Of a DNA stretch of 64,000 nucleotides, positions 12,566 through 61,218 are shown one piece after another. Made by a program: the position numbers and the translations under genes. The DNA is taken from contig JAQTTQ010000002.1 in assembly GCA_028710685.1 (NCBI GenBank), forward strand, positions 33,416-97,415. Direction: 5' to 3'. Each line of letters opens with the position of its first letter. Within the stretch, counting starts at the first letter, position 1. This stretch comes from Candidatus Omnitrophota bacterium. GTDB lineage: Bacteria; Omnitrophota; Gorgyraeia; Gygaellales; Profunditerraquicolaceae. A model generated the notes under the pieces. It did no database searches and was not told the DNA's origin. It worked only from the letters and a program-made list of their open reading frames with translations.

Positions 12566-14687
<2,122 letters not shown>

Positions 14688-14711
14688 GAATTTAAGAGGA
14701 TAATATATACC

Positions 14712-15413
14712 ATGACTAGAATTGACCTAGTTACAATTTTTCCCGGGATGTTTGACGCTGTGCTTAATGAATCAATCGTAAAGCGCGCCCAGGCTAAAGG
14801 GAAGGTTGAATTTAAGATCCATAATCTAAGGGACTATACTTTTGATAAACATAAAAAGGTCGATGACCGTCCTTTTGGAGGGGGCGCTGGAATGGTAATG
14901 TGCCCGCAGCCGATATTTAATTGTGTTGAGTATATAAAGTCAAGGTTAAGGAGTATGAAACCCAGGGTAATCCTTCTCTGTCCCCAAGGGGAAAAGCTAA
15001 CCCAGGCTGTTGCAAAGAGGCTATCTAAGATTAAGAGCCTTATCTTAATTTGCGGGCATTACGAAGGAGTAGATGAGAGGGTGAGGGAGGAGCTGGTTGA
15101 TGAGGAGGTTTCTATAGGGGACTACATCTTAACCGGAGGAGAGCTTCCGGCAATGGTTTTGATAGATGCAATCGTAAGGCTTATCCCCGGTGTGCTGGGA
15201 GACAAAAATTCCTTGAAATTTGAGTCTTTTGAGGGTAATCTATTAGAACATCCGCATTATACCCGTCCCGCTGAATTCCGTAATATGGATGTCCCGAAGG
15301 TGCTTTTATCCGGAGATCATAATAAGATAGAGGCCTGGAGGAAGAAAGAGTCAGCTACTAGGACAAAAGAACGCAGGCCGGATTTATTGAAGCCTAAGTT
15401 AAGGAGGAAGTAA
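14712..15413 (+). CDS. trmD: tRNA (guanine37-N1)-methyltransferase TrmD
   Basis: [17 protein letters not shown].. in the TrmD SPOUT family. Followed by rplS, as is usual. Confidence 0.9.
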
Positions 15414-15766
15414 TGAATAAGATTAAATTAGTTGAAGCGCAATTTACCAAGAAAGATCACCCTGTTTTCGGCGTAGGTGATACAGTTAAAGTTTTTACCA
15501 GGATTCCCGAGGGTCCGGATAAGTTTCGCCTCCATCCTTTTGAGGGAGTAGTTATTTCAAAGGAGGGCTCAGGGATAAGGGAGCATTTTACCATTAGAAA
15601 GGTATCCTACGGAGAGGGGATTGAGCGTGTTTTTCCTTTGAACTCACCGGCCATAGATAAGATCGAAGTTGTGCGTTTGGGCAAGGTAAAGCGCGCTAAG
15701 CTTTATTATCTGAGGAATAAATTTGGTAAACGCGCCACCAAAATAGCTAGCGCAGAGGCTAAATAA
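15413..15766 (+). CDS. rplS: 50S ribosomal protein L19
   Basis: 117 aa L19 family protein. ATGA junction with trmD. Confidence 0.9.
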
Positions 15767-15783
15767 GGGCTGGCTTAAGCTAA

Positions 15784-16386
15784 ATGCTTTATTATGAAGA
15801 TAAATATAATCGACTTGGGTATAAATTTGTTATCGGGGTAGATGAAGCCGGAAGAGGCCCTTTAGCCGGGCCGGTAGTTTCAGCCGCGGTATTGTTAAAC
15901 AGAAGAAGATTCAATAATCTTATAGATGACTCCAAGAAACTTGCTCCTCTAGCGCGGGAAAAGGCTTTTTTAGAGATTAACAGAAATTCGGTAAACGGCA
16001 TCGGTATTGTAAACGAGAAAATAATTGACCGGATTAATATTTTGGAAGCTACCCGTCTATCCATGCAGCAGGCAGTAATCTCTCTGGTAAACAAACTGGG
16101 AAACATAAATCATGATGAGGTTTTTGTTATCGCAGATGGCAACATGGATTTGTGTCTCGGTTTTCCTTATCAGTCTATTATTAAGGGCGATAATAAATCT
16201 AAGAGTATTGCCGCTGCCTCTATCCTGGCTAAGGTCATTCGTGATAGAATGATGTATGCATATGACAAGATTTACCCGGCTTATGGATTTAAGAGGCATA
16301 AGGGTTATCCCACTAAGGAGCACAGAGGTATTTTAAGGGAGATCGGCCCTTGTGTTATACACAGAAAGAGTTTTGTTTGTGCCTAA
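15784..16386 (+). CDS. rnhB: Ribonuclease HII
   Basis: VIGVDEAGRGPLAGPVV catalytic motif. Confidence 0.9.
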   Translation: MLYYEDKYNRLGYKFVIGVDEAGRGPLAGPVVSAAVLLNRRRFNNLIDDSKKLAPLAREKAFLEINRNSVNGIGIVNEKIIDRINILEATRLSMQQAVISLVNKLGNINHDEVFVIADGNMDLCLGFPYQSIIKGDNKSKSIAAASILAKVIRDRMMYAYDKIYPAYGFKRHKGYPTKEHRGILREIGPCVIHRKSFVCA

Positions 16387-16393
16387 GGCAGGG

Positions 16394-16759
16394 ATGAGCT
16401 TAGGGTTAAGAGGTGAAGAGGCGGCCGCCTGTTTCTTGATGAAGAACGGGTATAAGATTATATCCCGTAACTACAAGAATAAATTAGGCGAGGTTGATAT
16501 TATAGCAGAAGACGGGGGGGTTATCTGTTTCATAGAAGTGAAAGCCCGCAAAAGCAACCGGTTCGGCCTGGCTAAAGAATCTGTGACAGTGAGAAAACAG
16601 AGGCAGATAGCTAAAGCGGCGATAGGCTTTCTTAAGGAAAAAGGTTTTTTAAACAGAAGGGCTAGATTTGACGTAGTTGCCCTAGATTACTCTTCTTTTG
16701 GGATAAAATTAGATTTGATTAGAAATGCCTTTGATTTAGGGGGTAATTTTAATTATTAG
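16394..16759 (+). CDS. yraN: YraN-family (UPF0102) endonuclease
   Basis: GEEAAACFLMKNGYKIISRNY..GEVDIIAE..FIEVKAR. Start placed at the ATG at 16394 rather than the ORF-track start at 16352 that overlaps rnhB. Confidence 0.75.
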   Translation: MSLGLRGEEAAACFLMKNGYKIISRNYKNKLGEVDIIAEDGGVICFIEVKARKSNRFGLAKESVTVRKQRQIAKAAIGFLKEKGFLNRRARFDVVALDYSSFGIKLDLIRNAFDLGGNFNY

Positions 16760-16763
16760 GAAA

Positions 16764-17324
16764 ATGTATAAGGACAATACGCTTAAAGATTACCTTGATG
16801 AATTAGCAGCTAAGCTTCCCGTTCCGGGAGGCGGATCTTCGGCTGCGCTTTGTGCCGCTATGGCAGCTGCCTTGGTGAGTATGGTGGTTAATTTTACTTT
16901 GGGAAAGCCAAAATATGAGAAATACGAAAAAAGGCTCAAGGAGGTTATTAATAAATCCGAGTTCTTAAGAAAAGAGTTCTTGCGGCTCGTAGACTTAGAT
17001 GCTATTGCCTATAAGTCCAATAATATGAGGGATGCCGTTAATGTCCCTTTTATGGTCGCCCGGCTTTGCCTGGAGGGTATAAAATTATGCCCTCCCTTGT
17101 TGAAGGAGGGGAATATTAATTTAGTGAGCGATATTGCGGTAGCCGCAGTTTTCTTTGAATCCGCTTTTGTTTCCGCATCTTTTAATGTTAAGATTAACTT
17201 AAAAAGCTTAGGCGATAAGAAATTTTGCGCAGGGGTTAGGAAGGAACTATCCCGCAATAACCGGCAAATAAGTAAAATAAGGATGCAGGTGGAGGAAAGA
17301 GTTGGCGATATTATTAGAGGGTAG
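16764..17324 (+). CDS. Cyclodeaminase/cyclohydrolase-family protein (FTCD_C domain; FchA-like methenyl-THF cyclohydrolase candidate)
   Basis: LPVPGGGSSAALCAAMAAALVSMV is the signature of the FTCD C-terminal all-helical domain. Overlaps folD. Confidence 0.7.
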   Translation: MYKDNTLKDYLDELAAKLPVPGGGSSAALCAAMAAALVSMVVNFTLGKPKYEKYEKRLKEVINKSEFLRKEFLRLVDLDAIAYKSNNMRDAVNVPFMVARLCLEGIKLCPPLLKEGNINLVSDIAVAAVFFESAFVSASFNVKINLKSLGDKKFCAGVRKELSRNNRQISKIRMQVEERVGDIIRG

Positions 17325-18147
17325 GCATATTGCAGAAAAGGTAAAGGAAGATATCAGGCTTAAGGTTTTGTCCTTAAAGATAAGGCCTTCTCTTGCCAGC
17401 TTAATGGTGGGCGATAATTCGGGGGCAGTCAGCTATGTCAAGTCTCAGGCTAAAGCCGCAGAGGAACTGGGGGTAGAATACCAAATACATAAGCTTTCTT
17501 CTTCCTCTTCACAGGAGGATATCATAGGTTTTGTCCGGAAGCTAAACAACGATAAGTCCGTTAACGGAATTATTATCCAGAATCCGCTCCCTGAAAAGAT
17601 AGATTATAAAGCGGTGAGCTTTTCTATGGACCCTGAAAAGGATATTGAGGGAGTACACCCTGCTAATATTGCAGGGATTATTACCGGCAGGGCTAAATTT
17701 ATTCCCTGTACTGCCTATGCGGTAATGGAGTTGATATCTGCCAGCGGGATTAACTTATACGGCAAGGAGGCGGTGATAGTCGGGCATAGCTCAATAGTGG
17801 GTAAGCCTTTAGTGTTTTTATTATTGGATAAGCTTGCTACAGTCACAATATGCCATATAGGCACTAGCCAGGCCGGTAAATTAGAGGATCATATACGCAG
17901 GGCGGAAGTATTAGTTGTTGCCGTAGGGAAGGCAAACCTGATAAAAGGGGAATGGATTAAAGAAGGCGCGGTGGTTATTGATGTGGGGATTAACCGGGTA
18001 AATGGCAAGATTGTCGGGGATGTAGAGTTTTCCGCTGCAGAAAAAAAAGCTGCATTCATTACTCCGGTTCCCGGAGGCGTTGGGCCTTTGACTGTTGCTA
18101 TGTTAATGCGTAATTTAGTTGAGGCAGCCAGGCTGCAGCAGGGTTGA
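17302..18147 (+). CDS. folD: Bifunctional methylene-THF dehydrogenase / methenyl-THF cyclohydrolase FolD
   Basis: 281 aa in the FolD family. Probable TTG start. Confidence 0.9.
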   Translation: MAILLEGRHIAEKVKEDIRLKVLSLKIRPSLASLMVGDNSGAVSYVKSQAKAAEELGVEYQIHKLSSSSSQEDIIGFVRKLNNDKSVNGIIIQNPLPEKIDYKAVSFSMDPEKDIEGVHPANIAGIITGRAKFIPCTAYAVMELISASGINLYGKEAVIVGHSSIVGKPLVFLLLDKLATVTICHIGTSQAGKLEDHIRRAEVLVVAVGKANLIKGEWIKEGAVVIDVGINRVNGKIVGDVEFSAAEKKAAFITPVPGGVGPLTVAMLMRNLVEAARLQQG

Positions 18148-18166
18148 TGGAGTTAATAAATTAAAG

Positions 18167-19036
18167 ATGAATTTTAAAGAAAAATTAGCATCCGATAAAT
18201 TCGTATTGACATCTGAGGTCGGGCCTCCTAAGGGGGTTGAGGTCAAGGGCCTTTTGGAAGAATCTGAGCTTATCCGTAACCGCGTGGATGCGATTAATGT
18301 TACGGACTTGCAAAACTCGGTTATGCGCCTTGGTTCTCTGGCGGTCTCCAGTATTTTAAAGCACCACGGGTTTGAACCTATCTATCAGTTAACCTGCAGG
18401 GATAGAAACCGGTTGGCGCTGCAATCAGACCTTTTGTCCGCAGCGGTGTTAGGCATTGAGAATGTTTTAATCTTAACCGGAGATCATACCACCGCCGGGG
18501 ATCATCCTGAGGCGAAGCCCGTTTTTGACCTGGATTCCGTACAGCTTTTACAGGCAGCTAACAGGCTAAGCCAGGGGTTTGATATAAAGGGAAACAGGCT
18601 AAGCGGTAAAGCGCCGAATTTTTGCCTGGGGGCGGTAGTTAACCCCGGGGCAGATCCCCTAGAGCCTCAGATTATAAAAATGGAGAAGAAAATAGCCGCC
18701 GGTGCGCAGTTTTTTCAGACCCAGGCGGTATATGACATAAAGGTTTTTGAGGATTTCCTTAAAAAAACCAAGCATCTTAAAACTAAGATTATGGCCGGGA
18801 TTGTTTTGCTTAAATCTGCAGGTATGGCTGAATATATGAATCAAAATGTGGCCGGGGTAAACGTACCCGAAGAACTGATTAAGGAGATGGGAGAGGCAAA
18901 AGATAAGGTTAAGCAGTCTGTCAAAATTGCATCAGGGATTATAAAGGAATTAAAGCCTATGTGTGATGGGGTTCATATTATGCCTATTGGTTGGGGCAGG
19001 CTCGTCCCAGAGGTTTTAGATGCCTCAGGGCTATGA
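18167..19036 (+). CDS. metF: Methylenetetrahydrofolate reductase (short MetF type)
   Basis: FVLTSEVGPPKG..INVTD..YQLTCRDRNR..ILTGD motifs of MTHFR. An alternative start lies at 18119. Confidence 0.8.
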   Translation: MNFKEKLASDKFVLTSEVGPPKGVEVKGLLEESELIRNRVDAINVTDLQNSVMRLGSLAVSSILKHHGFEPIYQLTCRDRNRLALQSDLLSAAVLGIENVLILTGDHTTAGDHPEAKPVFDLDSVQLLQAANRLSQGFDIKGNRLSGKAPNFCLGAVVNPGADPLEPQIIKMEKKIAAGAQFFQTQAVYDIKVFEDFLKKTKHLKTKIMAGIVLLKSAGMAEYMNQNVAGVNVPEELIKEMGEAKDKVKQSVKIASGIIKELKPMCDGVHIMPIGWGRLVPEVLDASGL

Positions 19037-19917
19037 TGAATCATATTGTTATTATAGGGGCTTCATCCTCCGGGCATAATCTTGCCTTCAAGATAAGAGA
19101 GAGAAATAAAGGCTGTAAGATAACCTTGATCAGTGAAGAAGGTTATTTAGCTTATGATCATCTGAGGTTGGCTGATTTTATTAGCGGGACAATAAGTGAA
19201 AGGGATGTATTTTTATGTAATGAGGATGATTATTTAAGTCAGGATATAAATTTCCTTAAGAATAAGAAGGTTGCAAGCATTAACATACAGAGGCGCTTGC
19301 TTTATTTCAAGGATAAGGGAAATATCAATTATGATATTCTGATAATTGCCTCCGGCAGGAGCCCGACTATTTTGGATATTCCGGGTGCCCGAAAGGAAGG
19401 GGCCTATCGCCTCTATACTCTGGATGATGCCAAAGAATTTCTTAAACGTTATATCGCCTCTGCGGTTTGTATAGTAGGCAGCAGTAGTTTTGCTTTAAAA
19501 ATAGCAGAGGTGGTCTCGGAGAAATACGGGGTTGAGACAAAAATATTAAGCCCTGCTGTTTTTAACCTTGCGGATCTACCCCCAAAGTCAGAGGTTATTA
19601 ATGATACCTTGGCCGAGGTTATCGGCGAGGGGGAAGTCCAGGCAGTTAAGCTTACAAGCGGCAAGGTGTTGGGAGTATCGGCGGTCTTATTTATGGATAA
19701 TTACAAGGCAAATATTGATTTCCTGAAGAATGCGGATATACAAATTAAAGAGGATTGTATCGCGGTGAATGGGCTTATGGCTACTAATTACGATAATATT
19801 TTTGCCTGCGGCAGTGTTGTGGGCAGGGATAGTTTAGCTGTAAGTTTAATGCTGGCGGATAATATAACTAATAGATTAGGCCAAGAGGATGCCGGAAACA
19901 TTAGCGCAGTTAAGTGA
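19033..19917 (+). CDS. NirB/NADH-oxidase-like two-Rossmann-domain protein with degenerate dinucleotide-binding motifs (pseudo-flavoprotein)
   Basis: Colinear with the FAD and NAD domains of class-II pyridine-nucleotide-disulfide oxidoreductases, but GxGxxG is replaced by IIGASSSG and the second motif by VGSSSFALKIAE. ATGA junction with metF. Confidence 0.5.
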   Translation: MMNHIVIIGASSSGHNLAFKIRERNKGCKITLISEEGYLAYDHLRLADFISGTISERDVFLCNEDDYLSQDINFLKNKKVASINIQRRLLYFKDKGNINYDILIIASGRSPTILDIPGARKEGAYRLYTLDDAKEFLKRYIASAVCIVGSSSFALKIAEVVSEKYGVETKILSPAVFNLADLPPKSEVINDTLAEVIGEGEVQAVKLTSGKVLGVSAVLFMDNYKANIDFLKNADIQIKEDCIAVNGLMATNYDNIFACGSVVGRDSLAVSLMLADNITNRLGQEDAGNISAVK

Positions 19918-22042
19918 AAAGGGAAGAGCCGCGTTATCAAATCTGGCCCGCCAAACTTTAGATAAGGCGTTTTCTCTTTATGGAAAAGAGACTAAGATTT
20001 CTTTCCCCGTAACAAATTATTACCTCCCCCTGATTAATTCCATTTTAAATGTAAAAGTAAAGACTTTAGCCGATTTAGCCTTTATTTTGGATGAAGTTGA
20101 AAAAGATGAATTTTTACCTTTTGCAGAAGGTATATTGAATAAAGGCTTCTCTGTTTTAGCATGTATGGAAGTGCTGGCTGCCTTGGCAGTATTCAATAAA
20201 GGGCATCCGCTGCAAGGAAGCGGCTTTATACCTGATAGTATGCTGCGTTCTCTAGGCCTTAAGCTTATTGACGGGCGGGTATCGGCAATTGCAGTAATTT
20301 TAGGGCCGGCAAAAGACGTTGATTCTGCCGTAAGCCTTATTAGAGAATTTAAGTCTAGAGGGATTGTGAGCCTGCTAGCGGGAAATATTAACGGCAATAC
20401 TATGGAAGGCCAGCTTAAGAGCAGGGGCCTGGAATTAGGGTTAGATAATGGTATTATTGCTTTGGGAAGCGATTACCTGTCTGCAATATATGCGGTGAAT
20501 TTTATAGCCCGCTTTCCCTTAATCTACGGTAATTTCCAGGCAGGGCAGTGTCAGCAGATAATAGATTATATCCGCAAGCGTATTTTGGCCTTTTGCCTTT
20601 TGTTAGGTACTGCTGATGAGGAGGTTATAGCTTATGGCCTGGGGGTTATGGTGTTGGGCATGCCTCTTATAACTGATTTAAGCCTGCCTCAATTGGACAA
20701 AATAGATGCTACTTTTATTGAGGCCTTAGTAGTAGAAAAGGATTATAAAAAGATTCCTTCCCGGTGTATGCTTGCCCGCGGGATTAAGCCAAAGATTATA
20801 AATATGGAGATGCCTTTATCTTACGCTGCGGCCTTTGAGGGGGAGAAGGTAAGGCATGAGGAGCTTCAAGTTGAATTCGGCGGGAAGGCAAATTTGTCTT
20901 TTGAGCTTTTAGTCTCCCAAGAAGAGGCTAAGGTGGAAGACGGCAGGATTGAAGTTTTCGGGCCGGATTTGGATAGCCTTGAGAGAGGGAACAGGTTTTT
21001 GCCTTTAGCCGTAGTGGTAAATGTTTACGGCCGCAAGATGCAAAAAGATTTCGAGTCGATGCTGGAGCGCCAGATTGATCGTTTTATCAATTATGCTTGC
21101 GGGATAATGCATGAAGGCCAAAGGGACAACAGTTTAATCAGGGTAAGTTGCGACGCATTCTCAAGGGGTTTCCGGCTTAAGGACCTGGGCGTTATATTGC
21201 ATGCTATGTTTCATAGGGAGTATAGCGCAATCATTGATAAGGTAGGGGTTAGATTATATACTGATAAGGCGGATGTTGATAGGTTGTTGAGCGGCGCAAG
21301 GGAGATTTTTTCCCTTCGCGATAAGCGTATGCTCGGCCTAACTGATGAAGGCGTAGGCACCTATTATTCTTGCCTGATCTGCCAGTCAATTACCCCTAAC
21401 CATGTTTGTATCCTTACTCCCCAGAGGCCGGGTTTATGCGGTGCTTATTCTTGGCTGGATGCTAAGATCTCTTCTGAGATTGTCCCGACAGGGCCTAACC
21501 AGCCTATATTAAAGGGTAAGCCCTTAGATTTAAGGCTGGGGCAATGGGAGAGTATAAATAAATATGTAAGGGATAAGTCTAATAAAACAATAGAAAAGGT
21601 AAGCATTTATTCAATTGTAGACTCCCCACAGACTTCCAGCGGGTATTTTGAGTGTATTCTTGCGGTGGTGCCTGAGGTAAAAGGGGTAATGGTAGTTAAC
21701 CGGGATTATCCTGGCATGACTCCTTGTGGCATGAGTTTTTCTGACTTATCTGCTTTGTTAAGGACAGGTGCTCAGGTTCCGGGTTTATTAGGCATAAGCA
21801 AGCTTTATATTTTAAGCAGGAAGTTTATTTCAGCGGAAGGCGGGCTTAAGCGCTTAGTTTGGATGCCAAAAGAATTAAAAAAGCTTTTAGGGAAAGAGAT
21901 TGAGCAGGCAGCCCTTGATATAGGAGAATTCGGCCTGCTTGAGGAGATTGCTGATGAGGATGATGCTGTAAGCCTCGGTGAACTTGAAAGTTTCCTTTCG
22001 AAGGCTAATCACCCATCCCTTTGCATGGACCCATTAATTTGA
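19889..22042 (+). CDS. Acetyl-CoA synthase (AcsB/CdhC, CODH/ACS alpha) homolog with a non-canonical A-cluster site
   Basis: 717 aa, colinear with AcsB over the whole length (YYLP.., VYGRKMQ.DFE..LER.I..FINY, LGLTDE.V.T.YSC..CQS..PNHVCI.TP.R.GLCGA.SWLDAK, GMTP.GM.FS.L, VWMPK.LK). The Ni-binding Cys-Gly-Cys is replaced by Ser-Gly-Tyr. Confidence 0.75.
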   Translation: MPETLAQLSEKGRAALSNLARQTLDKAFSLYGKETKISFPVTNYYLPLINSILNVKVKTLADLAFILDEVEKDEFLPFAEGILNKGFSVLACMEVLAALAVFNKGHPLQGSGFIPDSMLRSLGLKLIDGRVSAIAVILGPAKDVDSAVSLIREFKSRGIVSLLAGNINGNTMEGQLKSRGLELGLDNGIIALGSDYLSAIYAVNFIARFPLIYGNFQAGQCQQIIDYIRKRILAFCLLLGTADEEVIAYGLGVMVLGMPLITDLSLPQLDKIDATFIEALVVEKDYKKIPSRCMLARGIKPKIINMEMPLSYAAAFEGEKVRHEELQVEFGGKANLSFELLVSQEEAKVEDGRIEVFGPDLDSLERGNRFLPLAVVVNVYGRKMQKDFESMLERQIDRFINYACGIMHEGQRDNSLIRVSCDAFSRGFRLKDLGVILHAMFHREYSAIIDKVGVRLYTDKADVDRLLSGAREIFSLRDKRMLGLTDEGVGTYYSCLICQSITPNHVCILTPQRPGLCGAYSWLDAKISSEIVPTGPNQPILKGKPLDLRLGQWESINKYVRDKSNKTIEKVSIYSIVDSPQTSSGYFECILAVVPEVKGVMVVNRDYPGMTPCGMSFSDLSALLRTGAQVPGLLGISKLYILSRKFISAEGGLKRLVWMPKELKKLLGKEIEQAALDIGEFGLLEEIADEDDAVSLGELESFLSKANHPSLCMDPLI

Positions 22043-22051
22043 TTTTTTCTC

Positions 22052-22079
22052 TTGACGTCCAACGCTTATACTATATAAT
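22052..22079 (+). promoter_or_regulatory. Sigma70-like promoter (TTGACG-16-TATAAT) upstream of the TPR gene
   Basis: Sequence match to the -35/-10 consensus, located in the 53-nt gap after the acsB-like gene. Confidence 0.4.
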
Positions 22080-60522: not shown

Positions 60523-61218
60523 ATGAAATTAGGAGAAAAGGATAAATCAAGAGAGTTGAGGCTGCAGGGATATTCAATGAAACAAATAGCAGGCTTATTA
60601 GGTGTATCTAAGGGCTCTGTGAGCAACTGGGTAAGAGATATACCCTTACCCCTTGAAGCAGCGATTAATATCGACAATCAATACTTAATTGGCAGGGAGA
60701 AGGCGCGGGTAACCAGGCTTAACAATATCACTTCTAGGAATAATGAAATATTTCGCATATGCAAAGAAGAGATAGTGCCATTTTCGATAAGAGATCTTTG
60801 GATGGCAGGGTTAATGATTTACGCGGGTGAAGGAAATAAATCTTCCGTTGTGTCGAATCAACATGTTGAAGTTGCTAATTCTGACCCTAACATTCTTAGG
60901 ATTTTTATTAAATTTCTTGTGGAAATTTGTCTTATTTCAAAAGGAAATATTATAATCCGTTTGATTTTATATAAGGATATCAATATAGAAGAGGCGTATA
61001 GATATTGGTCAGCAGAACTTAATATACCCCGGGCGCAATTCCGTAAAGAATTTATAAAACCGAGCTACAAAGATTCTCCATACCGACATCTTCGTCGTTC
61101 CTGCTATGGTACGGCTCACGTATGTTTATACGATATAAAAATCTATCGTAGAATAATGGGTTGGTTAAAAGCTGTATATGAGAATTTAATATTAGATGAA
61201 TTGATTATCGGGAAGTAG
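60523..61218 (+). CDS. HTH-domain plus LAGLIDADG-fold (homing-endonuclease-like) protein; AT-rich and probably mobile
   Basis: N-terminal HTH (LRLQGYSMKQIAGLLGVSKGSVSNWV), then DLWMAGLMIYAGEGNKSS (LAGLIDADG-type helix with GEG) and ..ANSDPNILRIFIKFL..KGNIII. Own TTGCCA-17-TATACT promoter 6 nt before the ATG. The stop codon lies inside tRNA-Pro. Confidence 0.55.
   Translation: MKLGEKDKSRELRLQGYSMKQIAGLLGVSKGSVSNWVRDIPLPLEAAINIDNQYLIGREKARVTRLNNITSRNNEIFRICKEEIVPFSIRDLWMAGLMIYAGEGNKSSVVSNQHVEVANSDPNILRIFIKFLVEICLISKGNIIIRLILYKDINIEEAYRYWSAELNIPRAQFRKEFIKPSYKDSPYRHLRRSCYGTAHVCLYDIKIYRRIMGWLKAVYENLILDELIIGK

Follow-up and report, generated by a model that had tools for sequence, protein, structure and literature searches.

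A 64,000-nucleotide stretch of DNA (hereafter the window; forward strand of contig JAQTTQ010000002.1, positions 33,416 to 97,415, assembly GCA_028710685.1) from a Candidatus Omnitrophota bacterium carries at 19889..22042 (+) a gene of 717 codons plus stop, an ortholog of the Omnitrophota acetyl-CoA synthase (ACS) gene acsB that is without the Ni-Ni site of the enzyme. The four cysteines of the [4Fe-4S] cubane are kept, and the Ni-ligating Cys-Gly-Cys is replaced by Ser584-Gly585-Tyr586. Judged from its sequence and that of its relatives, the gene is a natural ACS ortholog that lacks the Ni site and is maintained by selection, a new form within a known enzyme family. The gene had been singled out in an earlier note, made from the sequence alone, as a full-length ACS homolog that has lost its nickel ligands. 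All coordinates are those of the window, and all features described in it lie on the (+) strand.

Identity, fold and domains

The open reading frame was translated from 19889 to 22042 without interruption in frame. The 717-residue protein contains the Pfam domains CODH_A_N (residues 22-99), CdhC (residues 308-463) and ACS_CODH_B_C (residues 474-717), and scores 809 bits against the NCBIfam ACS equivalog model NF040764, for which the cutoff is 800. Its top match in the PDB is the ACS of Carboxydothermus hydrogenoformans (8cjb_B, E = 1.7e-171, ungapped HMMER alignment); the solved enzymes of C. hydrogenoformans and Moorella thermoacetica match with E-values of 1e-171 to 1e-169 and are colinear with it over residues 12-717. 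An AlphaFold2 (AF2) model has a mean predicted local distance difference test score (pLDDT) of 75.5 and superposes on monomeric ACS (1RU3) with a template modeling (TM) score of 0.84. Homology and fold thus extend over all three domains (A1, A2 and A3) of the ACS family, and the full-length colinearity claimed earlier is borne out by Pfam, NCBIfam, the PDB alignments and the predicted fold.

By alignment to solved ACS, the N-terminal domain A1 comprises residues 1-310 (19889..20818) and is kept here, whereas it is deleted in sister variants described below. In canonical ACS this domain provides carbon monoxide dehydrogenase (CODH) docking and the CO tunnel. The middle domain A2, which binds CoA in canonical ACS, comprises residues 311-490 (20819..21358; Pfam CdhC), and the C-terminal A-cluster domain A3 residues 491-717 (21359..22039; Pfam ACS_CODH_B_C). 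In comparison with the ACS of C. hydrogenoformans (1RU3, 7ZKJ) and the alpha subunit of M. thermoacetica (1OAO, 1MJG), the window protein shares whole-length colinearity at about 40% identity, the three-domain fold, the four-cysteine cubane motif, Arg394 and Gly410. It differs from them in the defining feature of the A-cluster, with Ser-Gly-Tyr for Cys-Gly-Cys, and also at the Phe gate, the CoA-adenine Trp, the proposed catalytic His and a Gly-rich loop.

Active-site residues

The cubane motif C495-x2-C498-x8-C507-x9-C517 (21371..21439) is intact, with the Cys codons TGC at 21371, TGC at 21380, TGT at 21407 and TGC at 21437; a codon check found every coordinate in the earlier note, those of the Ni site included, to be exact to the base. 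All four ligating cysteines are invariant in variants and canonical sequences alike. The canonical motif YYSCLLCQSFAPTHVCIVSPERVGLCG aligns without gaps over YYSCLICQSITPNHVCILTPQRPGLCG of the window protein. No stretch of the variants is better conserved than the cubane loop (residues 491-525), in which 25 of 35 columns are invariant.

In M. thermoacetica, Cys595, Gly596 and Cys597 supply the bridging thiolates for the proximal and distal Ni, and Cys-Gly-Cys is present at the Ni site of every solved ACS. The corresponding stretch of the window protein reads TSSGYFEC (21632-21655). Ser584 (AGC, 21638), Gly585 (GGG, 21641) and Tyr586 (TAT, 21644) together occupy 21638..21646, where the closest canonical ortholog (locus L004) has TGC GGA TGC. 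HMMER pairwise and profile alignments place the replacement in the same columns without gaps; in the ungapped alignment to 8cjb_B, the window sequence pqTSSGYFECi stands under the canonical pmTSCGCFEAi. Both kinds of alignment uphold the proposed loss of Cys-Gly-Cys, and in neither can a substitute Cys-x-Cys be placed in the Ni column. Since canonical Omnitrophota sequences have the Cys of FEC too (SSCGCFEC), this residue does not stand in for a lost ligand.

Further residues around the A-cluster were compared in a table of 41 sequences, 29 canonical and 12 variant. The Phe gate over the proximal Ni, which is Phe491 in Clostridium autoethanogenum (bioRxiv 10.1101/2024.08.05.606187), Phe512 in M. 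thermoacetica and Phe515 in C. hydrogenoformans, is replaced by Ile501 (ATT, 21389..21391). Phe is invariant at this position in all 29 canonical Omnitrophota sequences, and the variants have Ile, Leu, Phe, Thr, His or Ser. Two residues of the CoA site are replaced as well. Trp405 stacks on the adenine of acetyl-CoA in the C. autoethanogenum complex, and His386 is the residue proposed to deprotonate the CoA thiol (bioRxiv 10.1101/2024.08.05.606187); the window protein has Leu416 (TTA, 21134..21136) for the Trp and Asp397 (GAT, 21077..21079) for the His. The Trp is kept in 29 of 29 canonical sequences and lost in 12 of 12 variants (to Leu, Cys or Ser). The canonical sequences examined all have the His, and each of the four sequences examined of the clade that carries Ser-Gly-Tyr (SGY) or Gly-Gly-Tyr (GGY) has Asp. 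Arg394 and Gly410, the equivalents of Arg383 and Gly399 of C. autoethanogenum, are retained. These residues were mapped by the R-x-x-H motif and a constant offset of -11, which is consistent with the ends of the alignment to solved ACS.

Constraint has been lost most strongly in the Gly-rich loop of residues 618-640 (21740..21808), which is nearly invariant in canonical sequences as LAGSVGGGVQTPGFLGVGK and is rewritten here as LSALLRTGAQVPGLLGISK; its column entropy is 0.08 for canonical sequences and 0.82 for the variants. The next largest releases are in the His/Trp region (residues 391-420) and then in the Ni loop (residues 571-600). A reference set of 117 further Omnitrophota sequences, of which 116 are canonical, has 330 columns with at least 97% conservation, and at 34 of these columns the three SGY/GGY representatives all differ from it. 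Eleven of the 12 variants have Tyr586 (Phe in one relative), whereas positions 584 and 501 vary. The only columns that are both switched and conserved are 586 (Cys to Tyr) and 637 (Gly to Ser). New cysteine ligands for a metal site were sought and rejected: Cys613 is polymorphic (Ser/Cys) in canonical sequences, and Cys404 is confined to the SGY clade.

Reality and heritability of the change

In a database of 5.8 billion proteins, 116 of the 120 best homologs read [ST]SCGCFEC. Only three of the 120 carry the altered site, namely clusters at 100%, 88% and 80% identity with SGY, GGY and SGY, respectively, so that the search for SGY in related genomes, proposed in the earlier note, gave a positive result. 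All 13 members of the 100% and 80% clusters have SGY and the one member of the 88% cluster has GGY (14 in total). The identical and related proteins bear Candidatus Omnitrophota names in their source records. They include the NCBI metagenome-assembled genome (MAG) entries MDD3987422, MDD4981301, MDD5664588, MDD3087519, MFA5437580, MFA5311086 and OQB10836, with further clade members from independent JGI, ENA and Logan assemblies. The SGY/GGY loci are syntenic and differ from one another at many synonymous sites, also around the Ni site. A sequencing, assembly or frameshift artefact at 21630-21660 is ruled out, for all practical purposes, by the 14 concordant independent sequences and the gapless alignment; the earlier argument that a single sequencing error could not explain the site is confirmed by the presence of SGY or GGY in all 14 clade members, in a continuous frame. 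Among the other Omnitrophota ACS sequences retrieved, 207 of 216 have Cys-Gly-Cys, six have Cys-Gly-Tyr (CGY) or Cys-Gly-Phe, and three gave no match to the search pattern.

Orthology

Canonical acsB genes with Cys-Gly-Cys, namely P0004 (L004/L005), P0005 (L031), P0009 (GCA_026387335.1) and P0048 (on a 922-kb contig), stand at the same chromosomal position. The gene order common to the window and the canonical loci is queA-tgt-trmD-rplS-rnhB-yraN-fchA-folD-metF-(Pyr_redox_2-like)-acsB-TPR-polA-glgA-coaE-rho. Because of this shared position, the window gene is the positional ortholog of canonical Omnitrophota ACS and not a paralog; the synteny rules out the diverged paralog that had been suggested for it. 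The canonical genes (P0004, P0009) share with it the gene order, 62-65% identity and the same degenerate flavoprotein-like partner. They differ in keeping Cys-Gly-Cys, the Phe, the Trp, the His and the Gly-rich loop, and in evolving 3-4 times more slowly.

Selection and rate of evolution after the loss

The ratio of nonsynonymous to synonymous substitution (dN/dS) was estimated pairwise by the Nei-Gojobori method. Since all members of the SGY/GGY clade share the loss, divergence within this clade took place after it. For the whole ACS gene within the SGY clade, dN/dS is 0.17-0.22 at dS 0.27-0.68; A2 and A3 together give 0.14. By domain, the ratio within the clade is 0.20-0.28 in A1, the most relaxed, 0.11-0.15 in A2 and 0.17-0.24 in A3. 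The neighboring genes within the clade have ratios of 0.04-0.23, mostly about 0.1; within the variant clade, the flavoprotein-like gene has 0.08-0.12 and metF 0.04-0.11. In the CGY clade without A1, described below, dN/dS of the ACS-like gene is 0.11-0.13. The excess of synonymous changes over neutrality is significant (Fisher p < 1e-36). The ACS-like gene has thus been under relaxed but clearly purifying selection since the loss, and two marks of a pseudoenzyme, loss of essential residues and continued purifying selection, are found in it.

In a comparison of the canonical genomes L004 and L006, ACS ranks with the best-conserved genes (80% identity; its dN is 0.14, that of polA 0.28). When the window is compared with L004, its canonical sister, no gene is less conserved than ACS, at 65% identity. 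By a three-taxon decomposition, the window branch has 3.8 times as much ACS dN as the L004 branch, compared with 1.2-2.1 times for eight neighboring genes. The acceleration is specific to ACS, and amounts to 3-4 times the rate of the canonical orthologs.

Further-degenerate forms at the same locus

Relatives carry forms of the gene that are degenerate to different degrees. In P0132-P0135, P0137 and P0149 (L018, L019, L020, L029) the Ni site is Cys-Gly-Tyr and the protein is 420-441 residues long, the whole of A1 having been lost by a clean in-frame deletion; the gene then directly follows the flavoprotein-like gene. P0136 (L030) also has Cys-Gly-Tyr, with a partial deletion of A1 and a length of 621 residues. 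P0391 (L033) has Ser-Ser-Leu in an A1-less protein of 424 residues, and P0065, on a 2.7-kb contig, has Cys-Gly-Phe in a protein of 701 residues. The CGY and Ser-Ser-Leu genes were located at L018:3212-4540, L019:8705-9988, L029:10001-11278, L030:4502-6367 and L033:4782-6056. Synteny with the window holds at every locus fetched for these forms, the P0065 contig being outside the comparison. The A1-less CGY proteins stay under selection; with the Ni site lost, the CODH-docking and CO-tunnel domain is thus dispensable, and the middle and cubane domains are kept. The architecture of the short CGY and Ser-Ser-Leu forms, A2 plus A3, resembles that of archaeal-type CdhC (PDB 9C0S chain E). Archaeal CdhC, however, has an intact A-cluster, whereas the Omnitrophota short forms derive from a three-domain bacterial ACS by recent deletion and have lost one or both Ni cysteines; the window protein itself, unlike CdhC, keeps A1.

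Neighbor-joining (NJ) trees with simple distances and bootstrap were computed for ACS and for the flanking genes (upstream housekeeping genes, upstream one-carbon genes, downstream genes, and all combined). In every flanking-gene tree, canonical L004 falls together with the SGY lineage and L033 in one clade (98-100% bootstrap), and the CGY lineage lies outside it. The ACS tree instead unites all variants and excludes L004 (91-98% bootstrap). Since the ACS of L004 groups with no potential donor, the grouping in the ACS tree is read as long-branch attraction together with parallel change at released sites, a reading that simple NJ trees do not settle. The changes shared by the variants are single-nucleotide changes, mostly transitions (Cys TGY to Tyr TAT, and others). 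Taken this way, the flanking trees point to two or more independent losses of Cys597, and to two separate deletions of A1, among close relatives. Alternatively, the site may have been lost once and later restored in L004 by recombination.

Family-wide survey

An exhaustive HMMER search of 1.84 billion cluster representatives (50% identity) at E <= 0.001 matched 1068 proteins of the ACS family. The best 150 of the 1068 were aligned to the profile, and about 110 of these cover the Ni site. Cys-Gly-Cys is present in 57 representatives and another Cys-x-Cys in 13; the first Cys only is kept in 15, the second only in seven, and neither in 19. About one third of the site-covering representatives (within P0231-P0378) are thus without a Ni cysteine, and nearly all of them have the four cubane cysteines; these counts are subject to over-counting of fast lineages by 50%-identity clusters, to imprecise distant alignments and to the inclusion of fragments. 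Across the family, loss of a Ni cysteine is usually accompanied by loss of the CoA-stacking Trp. The variants comprise both recent offshoots of canonical clades and deep clades; examples are RLC73175.1 (Chloroflexota MAG) and MDR2520099.1 (Eubacteriaceae MAG).

The uncharacterized ACS-like proteins of other phyla resemble the window protein in that the cubane cysteines are kept, the Ni cysteines lost and, usually, the Trp lost. They differ in being only 24-45% identical, in forming deep clades in some cases, and in at least one case in being encoded by an orphan gene (L032:10001-12109, with no one-carbon genes as neighbors). Full-text literature searches returned neither a description of a natural ACS lacking Cys-Gly-Cys nor a function for such proteins. 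ACS-like proteins that keep only the cubane are a recurrent class, and apparently an undescribed one.

Neighboring genes

The ACS-like gene is preceded by an fchA-like gene (cyclodeaminase/cyclohydrolase domain, Pfam FTCD_C; 16764..17324), folD (methylenetetrahydrofolate dehydrogenase/cyclohydrolase, Pfam THF_DHG_CYH and THF_DHG_CYH_C; 17302..18147), metF (methylenetetrahydrofolate reductase of 289 residues, Pfam MTHFR; 18167..19036) and a gene for a Pyr_redox_2-like protein of 294 residues (Pfam; 19033..19917), the end of which overlaps the ACS start by 29 nt. In an alignment to 3KLJ and the full-length FNOR of L010, the two GxGxxG motifs of the Pyr_redox_2-like protein read GASSSG and GSSSFA, and its GD has become GS. 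With both its FAD and its NAD motif degenerate, it was reasonably labeled a pseudo-flavoprotein in the earlier note. The degeneracy recurs in the homologs of L002-L006, L018 and L019, both in relatives with canonical ACS and in variants. In other Omnitrophota the Pyr_redox_2-like protein is fused to ACS, either whole (1029 residues) or as its middle domain only (843-865 residues). The fusions argue for a physical association of the flavoprotein-like protein with ACS.

No cooS/acsA, acsC, acsD, acsE or cooC was found in the 64-kb window, in which the genes besides those of one-carbon metabolism are housekeeping genes only. None of these CODH/ACS partner genes was found within 10 kb of the canonical Omnitrophota orthologs either. 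Because the surroundings of the canonical genes lack them equally, their absence is not diagnostic: the missing acsA, acsCDE and cooC had been correctly observed, and the arrangement is normal for the group, with nothing in it specific to the variant. A CODH-less ACS in an incomplete Wood-Ljungdahl pathway is reportedly also found in Dehalococcoides mccartyi. According to a published survey, many Omnitrophota have a partial Wood-Ljungdahl pathway without formate dehydrogenase and AcsA/CooS (PMC10066038), and the window shares with such cases an acsB without adjacent CODH, set within one-carbon/folate metabolism. In those cases, however, the ACS is assumed to be competent (for CO use or acetyl-CoA cleavage), whereas the active site of the window protein is gone.

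The Omnitrophota lineage L010 (JBARPB010000021.1) has a classical cluster, folD-cooS-FNOR-acsB-acsC-RACo-cooC-acsD-acsE. Its canonical ACS (L010:6844-10362, 1172 residues) contains a LAGLIDADG intein immediately before Cys-Gly-Cys, with the junctions YPETS/CCVGDTEV and MHIAN/CGCFECI; the first Ni-ligand Cys would be the +1 extein nucleophile.

The genes at 13563-22042(+) are packed tightly, the one-carbon genes following tgt-trmD-rplS-rnhB-yraN with overlaps or gaps of a few bases, and several have a TTG or GTG start. The one-carbon tetrahydrofolate operon described earlier may thus form the end of a longer transcription unit of housekeeping genes. The ACS start (19889) lies 29 nt within the preceding gene, and AAGAGG, the sole sequence there that resembles a Shine-Dalgarno site, directly abuts the ATG (…CCAAGAGGATGCC…), an arrangement compatible with translational coupling rather than independent initiation. 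A sigma-70-like promoter site, TTGACG-16-TATAAT (22052..22079), lies in the 52-nt gap between the ACS stop and the TPR gene. It suggests that the transcription unit to which ACS belongs ends with this gene; the site is a consensus match only (11 of 12 positions), and the total number of matches in the region equals that in shuffled sequence. Elsewhere in the window, a Pfam search at E <= 1e-5 gave no match for an open reading frame of 231 residues at 60523-61218(+), which stands between ligA and the riboflavin genes.

Interpretation

The gene is best explained as the vertically inherited ortholog of Omnitrophota acsB, with its catalytic apparatus dismantled. Without the bridging cysteines neither Ni would bind, no A-cluster would be assembled, and acetyl-CoA would be neither synthesized nor cleaved. 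By the established structure and function of ACS, the protein is almost certainly no longer an acetyl-CoA synthase, because the equivalents of Cys595 and Cys597 that hold Ni are absent and the loss of the Trp and the His would impair the CoA half-reaction too. The earlier statement that the protein could not perform canonical acetyl-CoA synthesis is supported, and is strengthened by the loss of the Phe gate, the Trp and the His. The protein is probably a pseudoenzyme, a catalytically dead ACS retained as a cubane-bearing subunit that is non-catalytic or at least no longer an ACS, because the fold and the cubane are kept, selection persists, and relatives delete A1 yet keep the middle and cubane domains. 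Tyr586 (Phe in one relative) may, by our conjecture, fill the space of the Ni-Ni center. The likeliest role would be a structural or electron-carrying one in a methyl-branch module of FchA, FolD, MetF and the flavoprotein-like protein, to which gene order and the fusions point weakly. Several observations weigh against a retained subunit of this kind. Selection is relaxed relative to canonical ACS, and part of the protein may already be dispensable; the fusions that bear on the role come from relatives with canonical ACS; the four cubane cysteines could be kept for a purely structural need; and the confidence of the AF2 model is low exactly in the metal-binding loops (residues 495-519 and 568-587), with pLDDT below 50 for the cubane and Ni loops.

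A relic in slow decay, left without function in a lineage that no longer needs ACS (for example after loss of CODH or the corrinoid iron-sulfur protein in a host-dependent, reduced genome), is an unlikely explanation. It would account for the ACS-specific 3-4 fold acceleration, for the progressive erosion in relatives from CGY to SGY or Ser-Ser-Leu with partial or complete deletion of A1, and for the free variation at the released positions 501, 584 and 622-626, and it would suit the partial Wood-Ljungdahl pathway of many Omnitrophota (PMC10066038). It is at odds with a post-loss dN/dS of 0.11-0.22 at dS 0.3-1.1 in the SGY and CGY clades (p < 1e-36) and with the complete lack of stop codons and frameshifts in more than 20 variant sequences. 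The A1 deletions, moreover, are clean and in frame, and leave a start that lies within the end of the upstream gene or shortly after it; the cubane loop is nearly invariant; and the genomes are small and streamlined, of a kind that normally purges useless DNA. That the protein still works as an ACS and binds Ni through other ligands, such as the FEC Cys or backbone amides, is highly improbable. Its score against NF040764 remains above the cutoff and Arg394 and Gly410 are retained, but both bridging thiolates are gone with no alternative Cys-x-Cys at the site, the FEC Cys also occurs in canonical enzymes, and the losses extend to the Phe gate, the CoA-adenine Trp and the proposed catalytic His.

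The new chemistry or different metal considered in the earlier note is conceivable at most; the pattern is that of a dismantled active site on a kept scaffold. In its explicit form, a neofunctionalized catalyst with a site-differentiated [4Fe-4S] cluster flanked by Tyr, supporting other chemistry or another metal and reached repeatedly in the family, we consider improbable. Tyr586 is conserved (but for one Phe) amid released neighbors that vary, the flanking trees imply parallel changes of Cys to Tyr, Trp to Leu, Gly to Ser and Gly-Gly to charged residues in two lineages, and the third of family representatives that keep the cubane without a Ni cysteine includes deep clades, which suggest a long-lived alternative function. 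Against this, no new conserved set of polar or cysteine ligands is seen, only columns 586 and 637 being both switched and conserved; Cys404 is specific to the SGY clade and Cys613 polymorphic in canonical sequences; position 584 alternates between Ser and Gly, and in L033 the Tyr is replaced by Leu; the parallel changes are single-nucleotide, mostly transitions, as expected at released sites; and the CoA-site residues are lost, not retuned. A bolder and still doubtful view, to which we give slightly more weight, is that the cubane-only ACS-like proteins form a functional, unrecognized Fe-S class on the A2-A3 scaffold, with an aromatic residue in place of the Ni-Ni center beside a site-differentiated [4Fe-4S] cluster, and would have arisen many times across bacteria; the locus, with its canonical, CGY, SGY, Ser-Ser-Leu and domain-deleted forms at one position, would then be a transition in progress, its parallel substitutions pointing to a directed change towards a new redox or catalytic role.

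Significance

The protein passes the NCBI equivalog cutoff, and all public records call it acetyl-CoA synthase. Where a partial Wood-Ljungdahl pathway or acetogenesis is claimed from the genomes of these Omnitrophota, and probably of other lineages, a dead enzyme would therefore be included in the count. The forms found at this single orthologous position make up a rare series, from the intact enzyme through loss of one Ni ligand and of both to deletion of the CODH-docking domain. The series illustrates how one of the oldest metalloenzymes may lose its Ni-Ni center while the Fe-S domain is kept under selection. The survey suggests that ACS homologs which lack the Ni cysteines and keep the cubane are common among sequence clusters, and that the ACS fold may have a second function.

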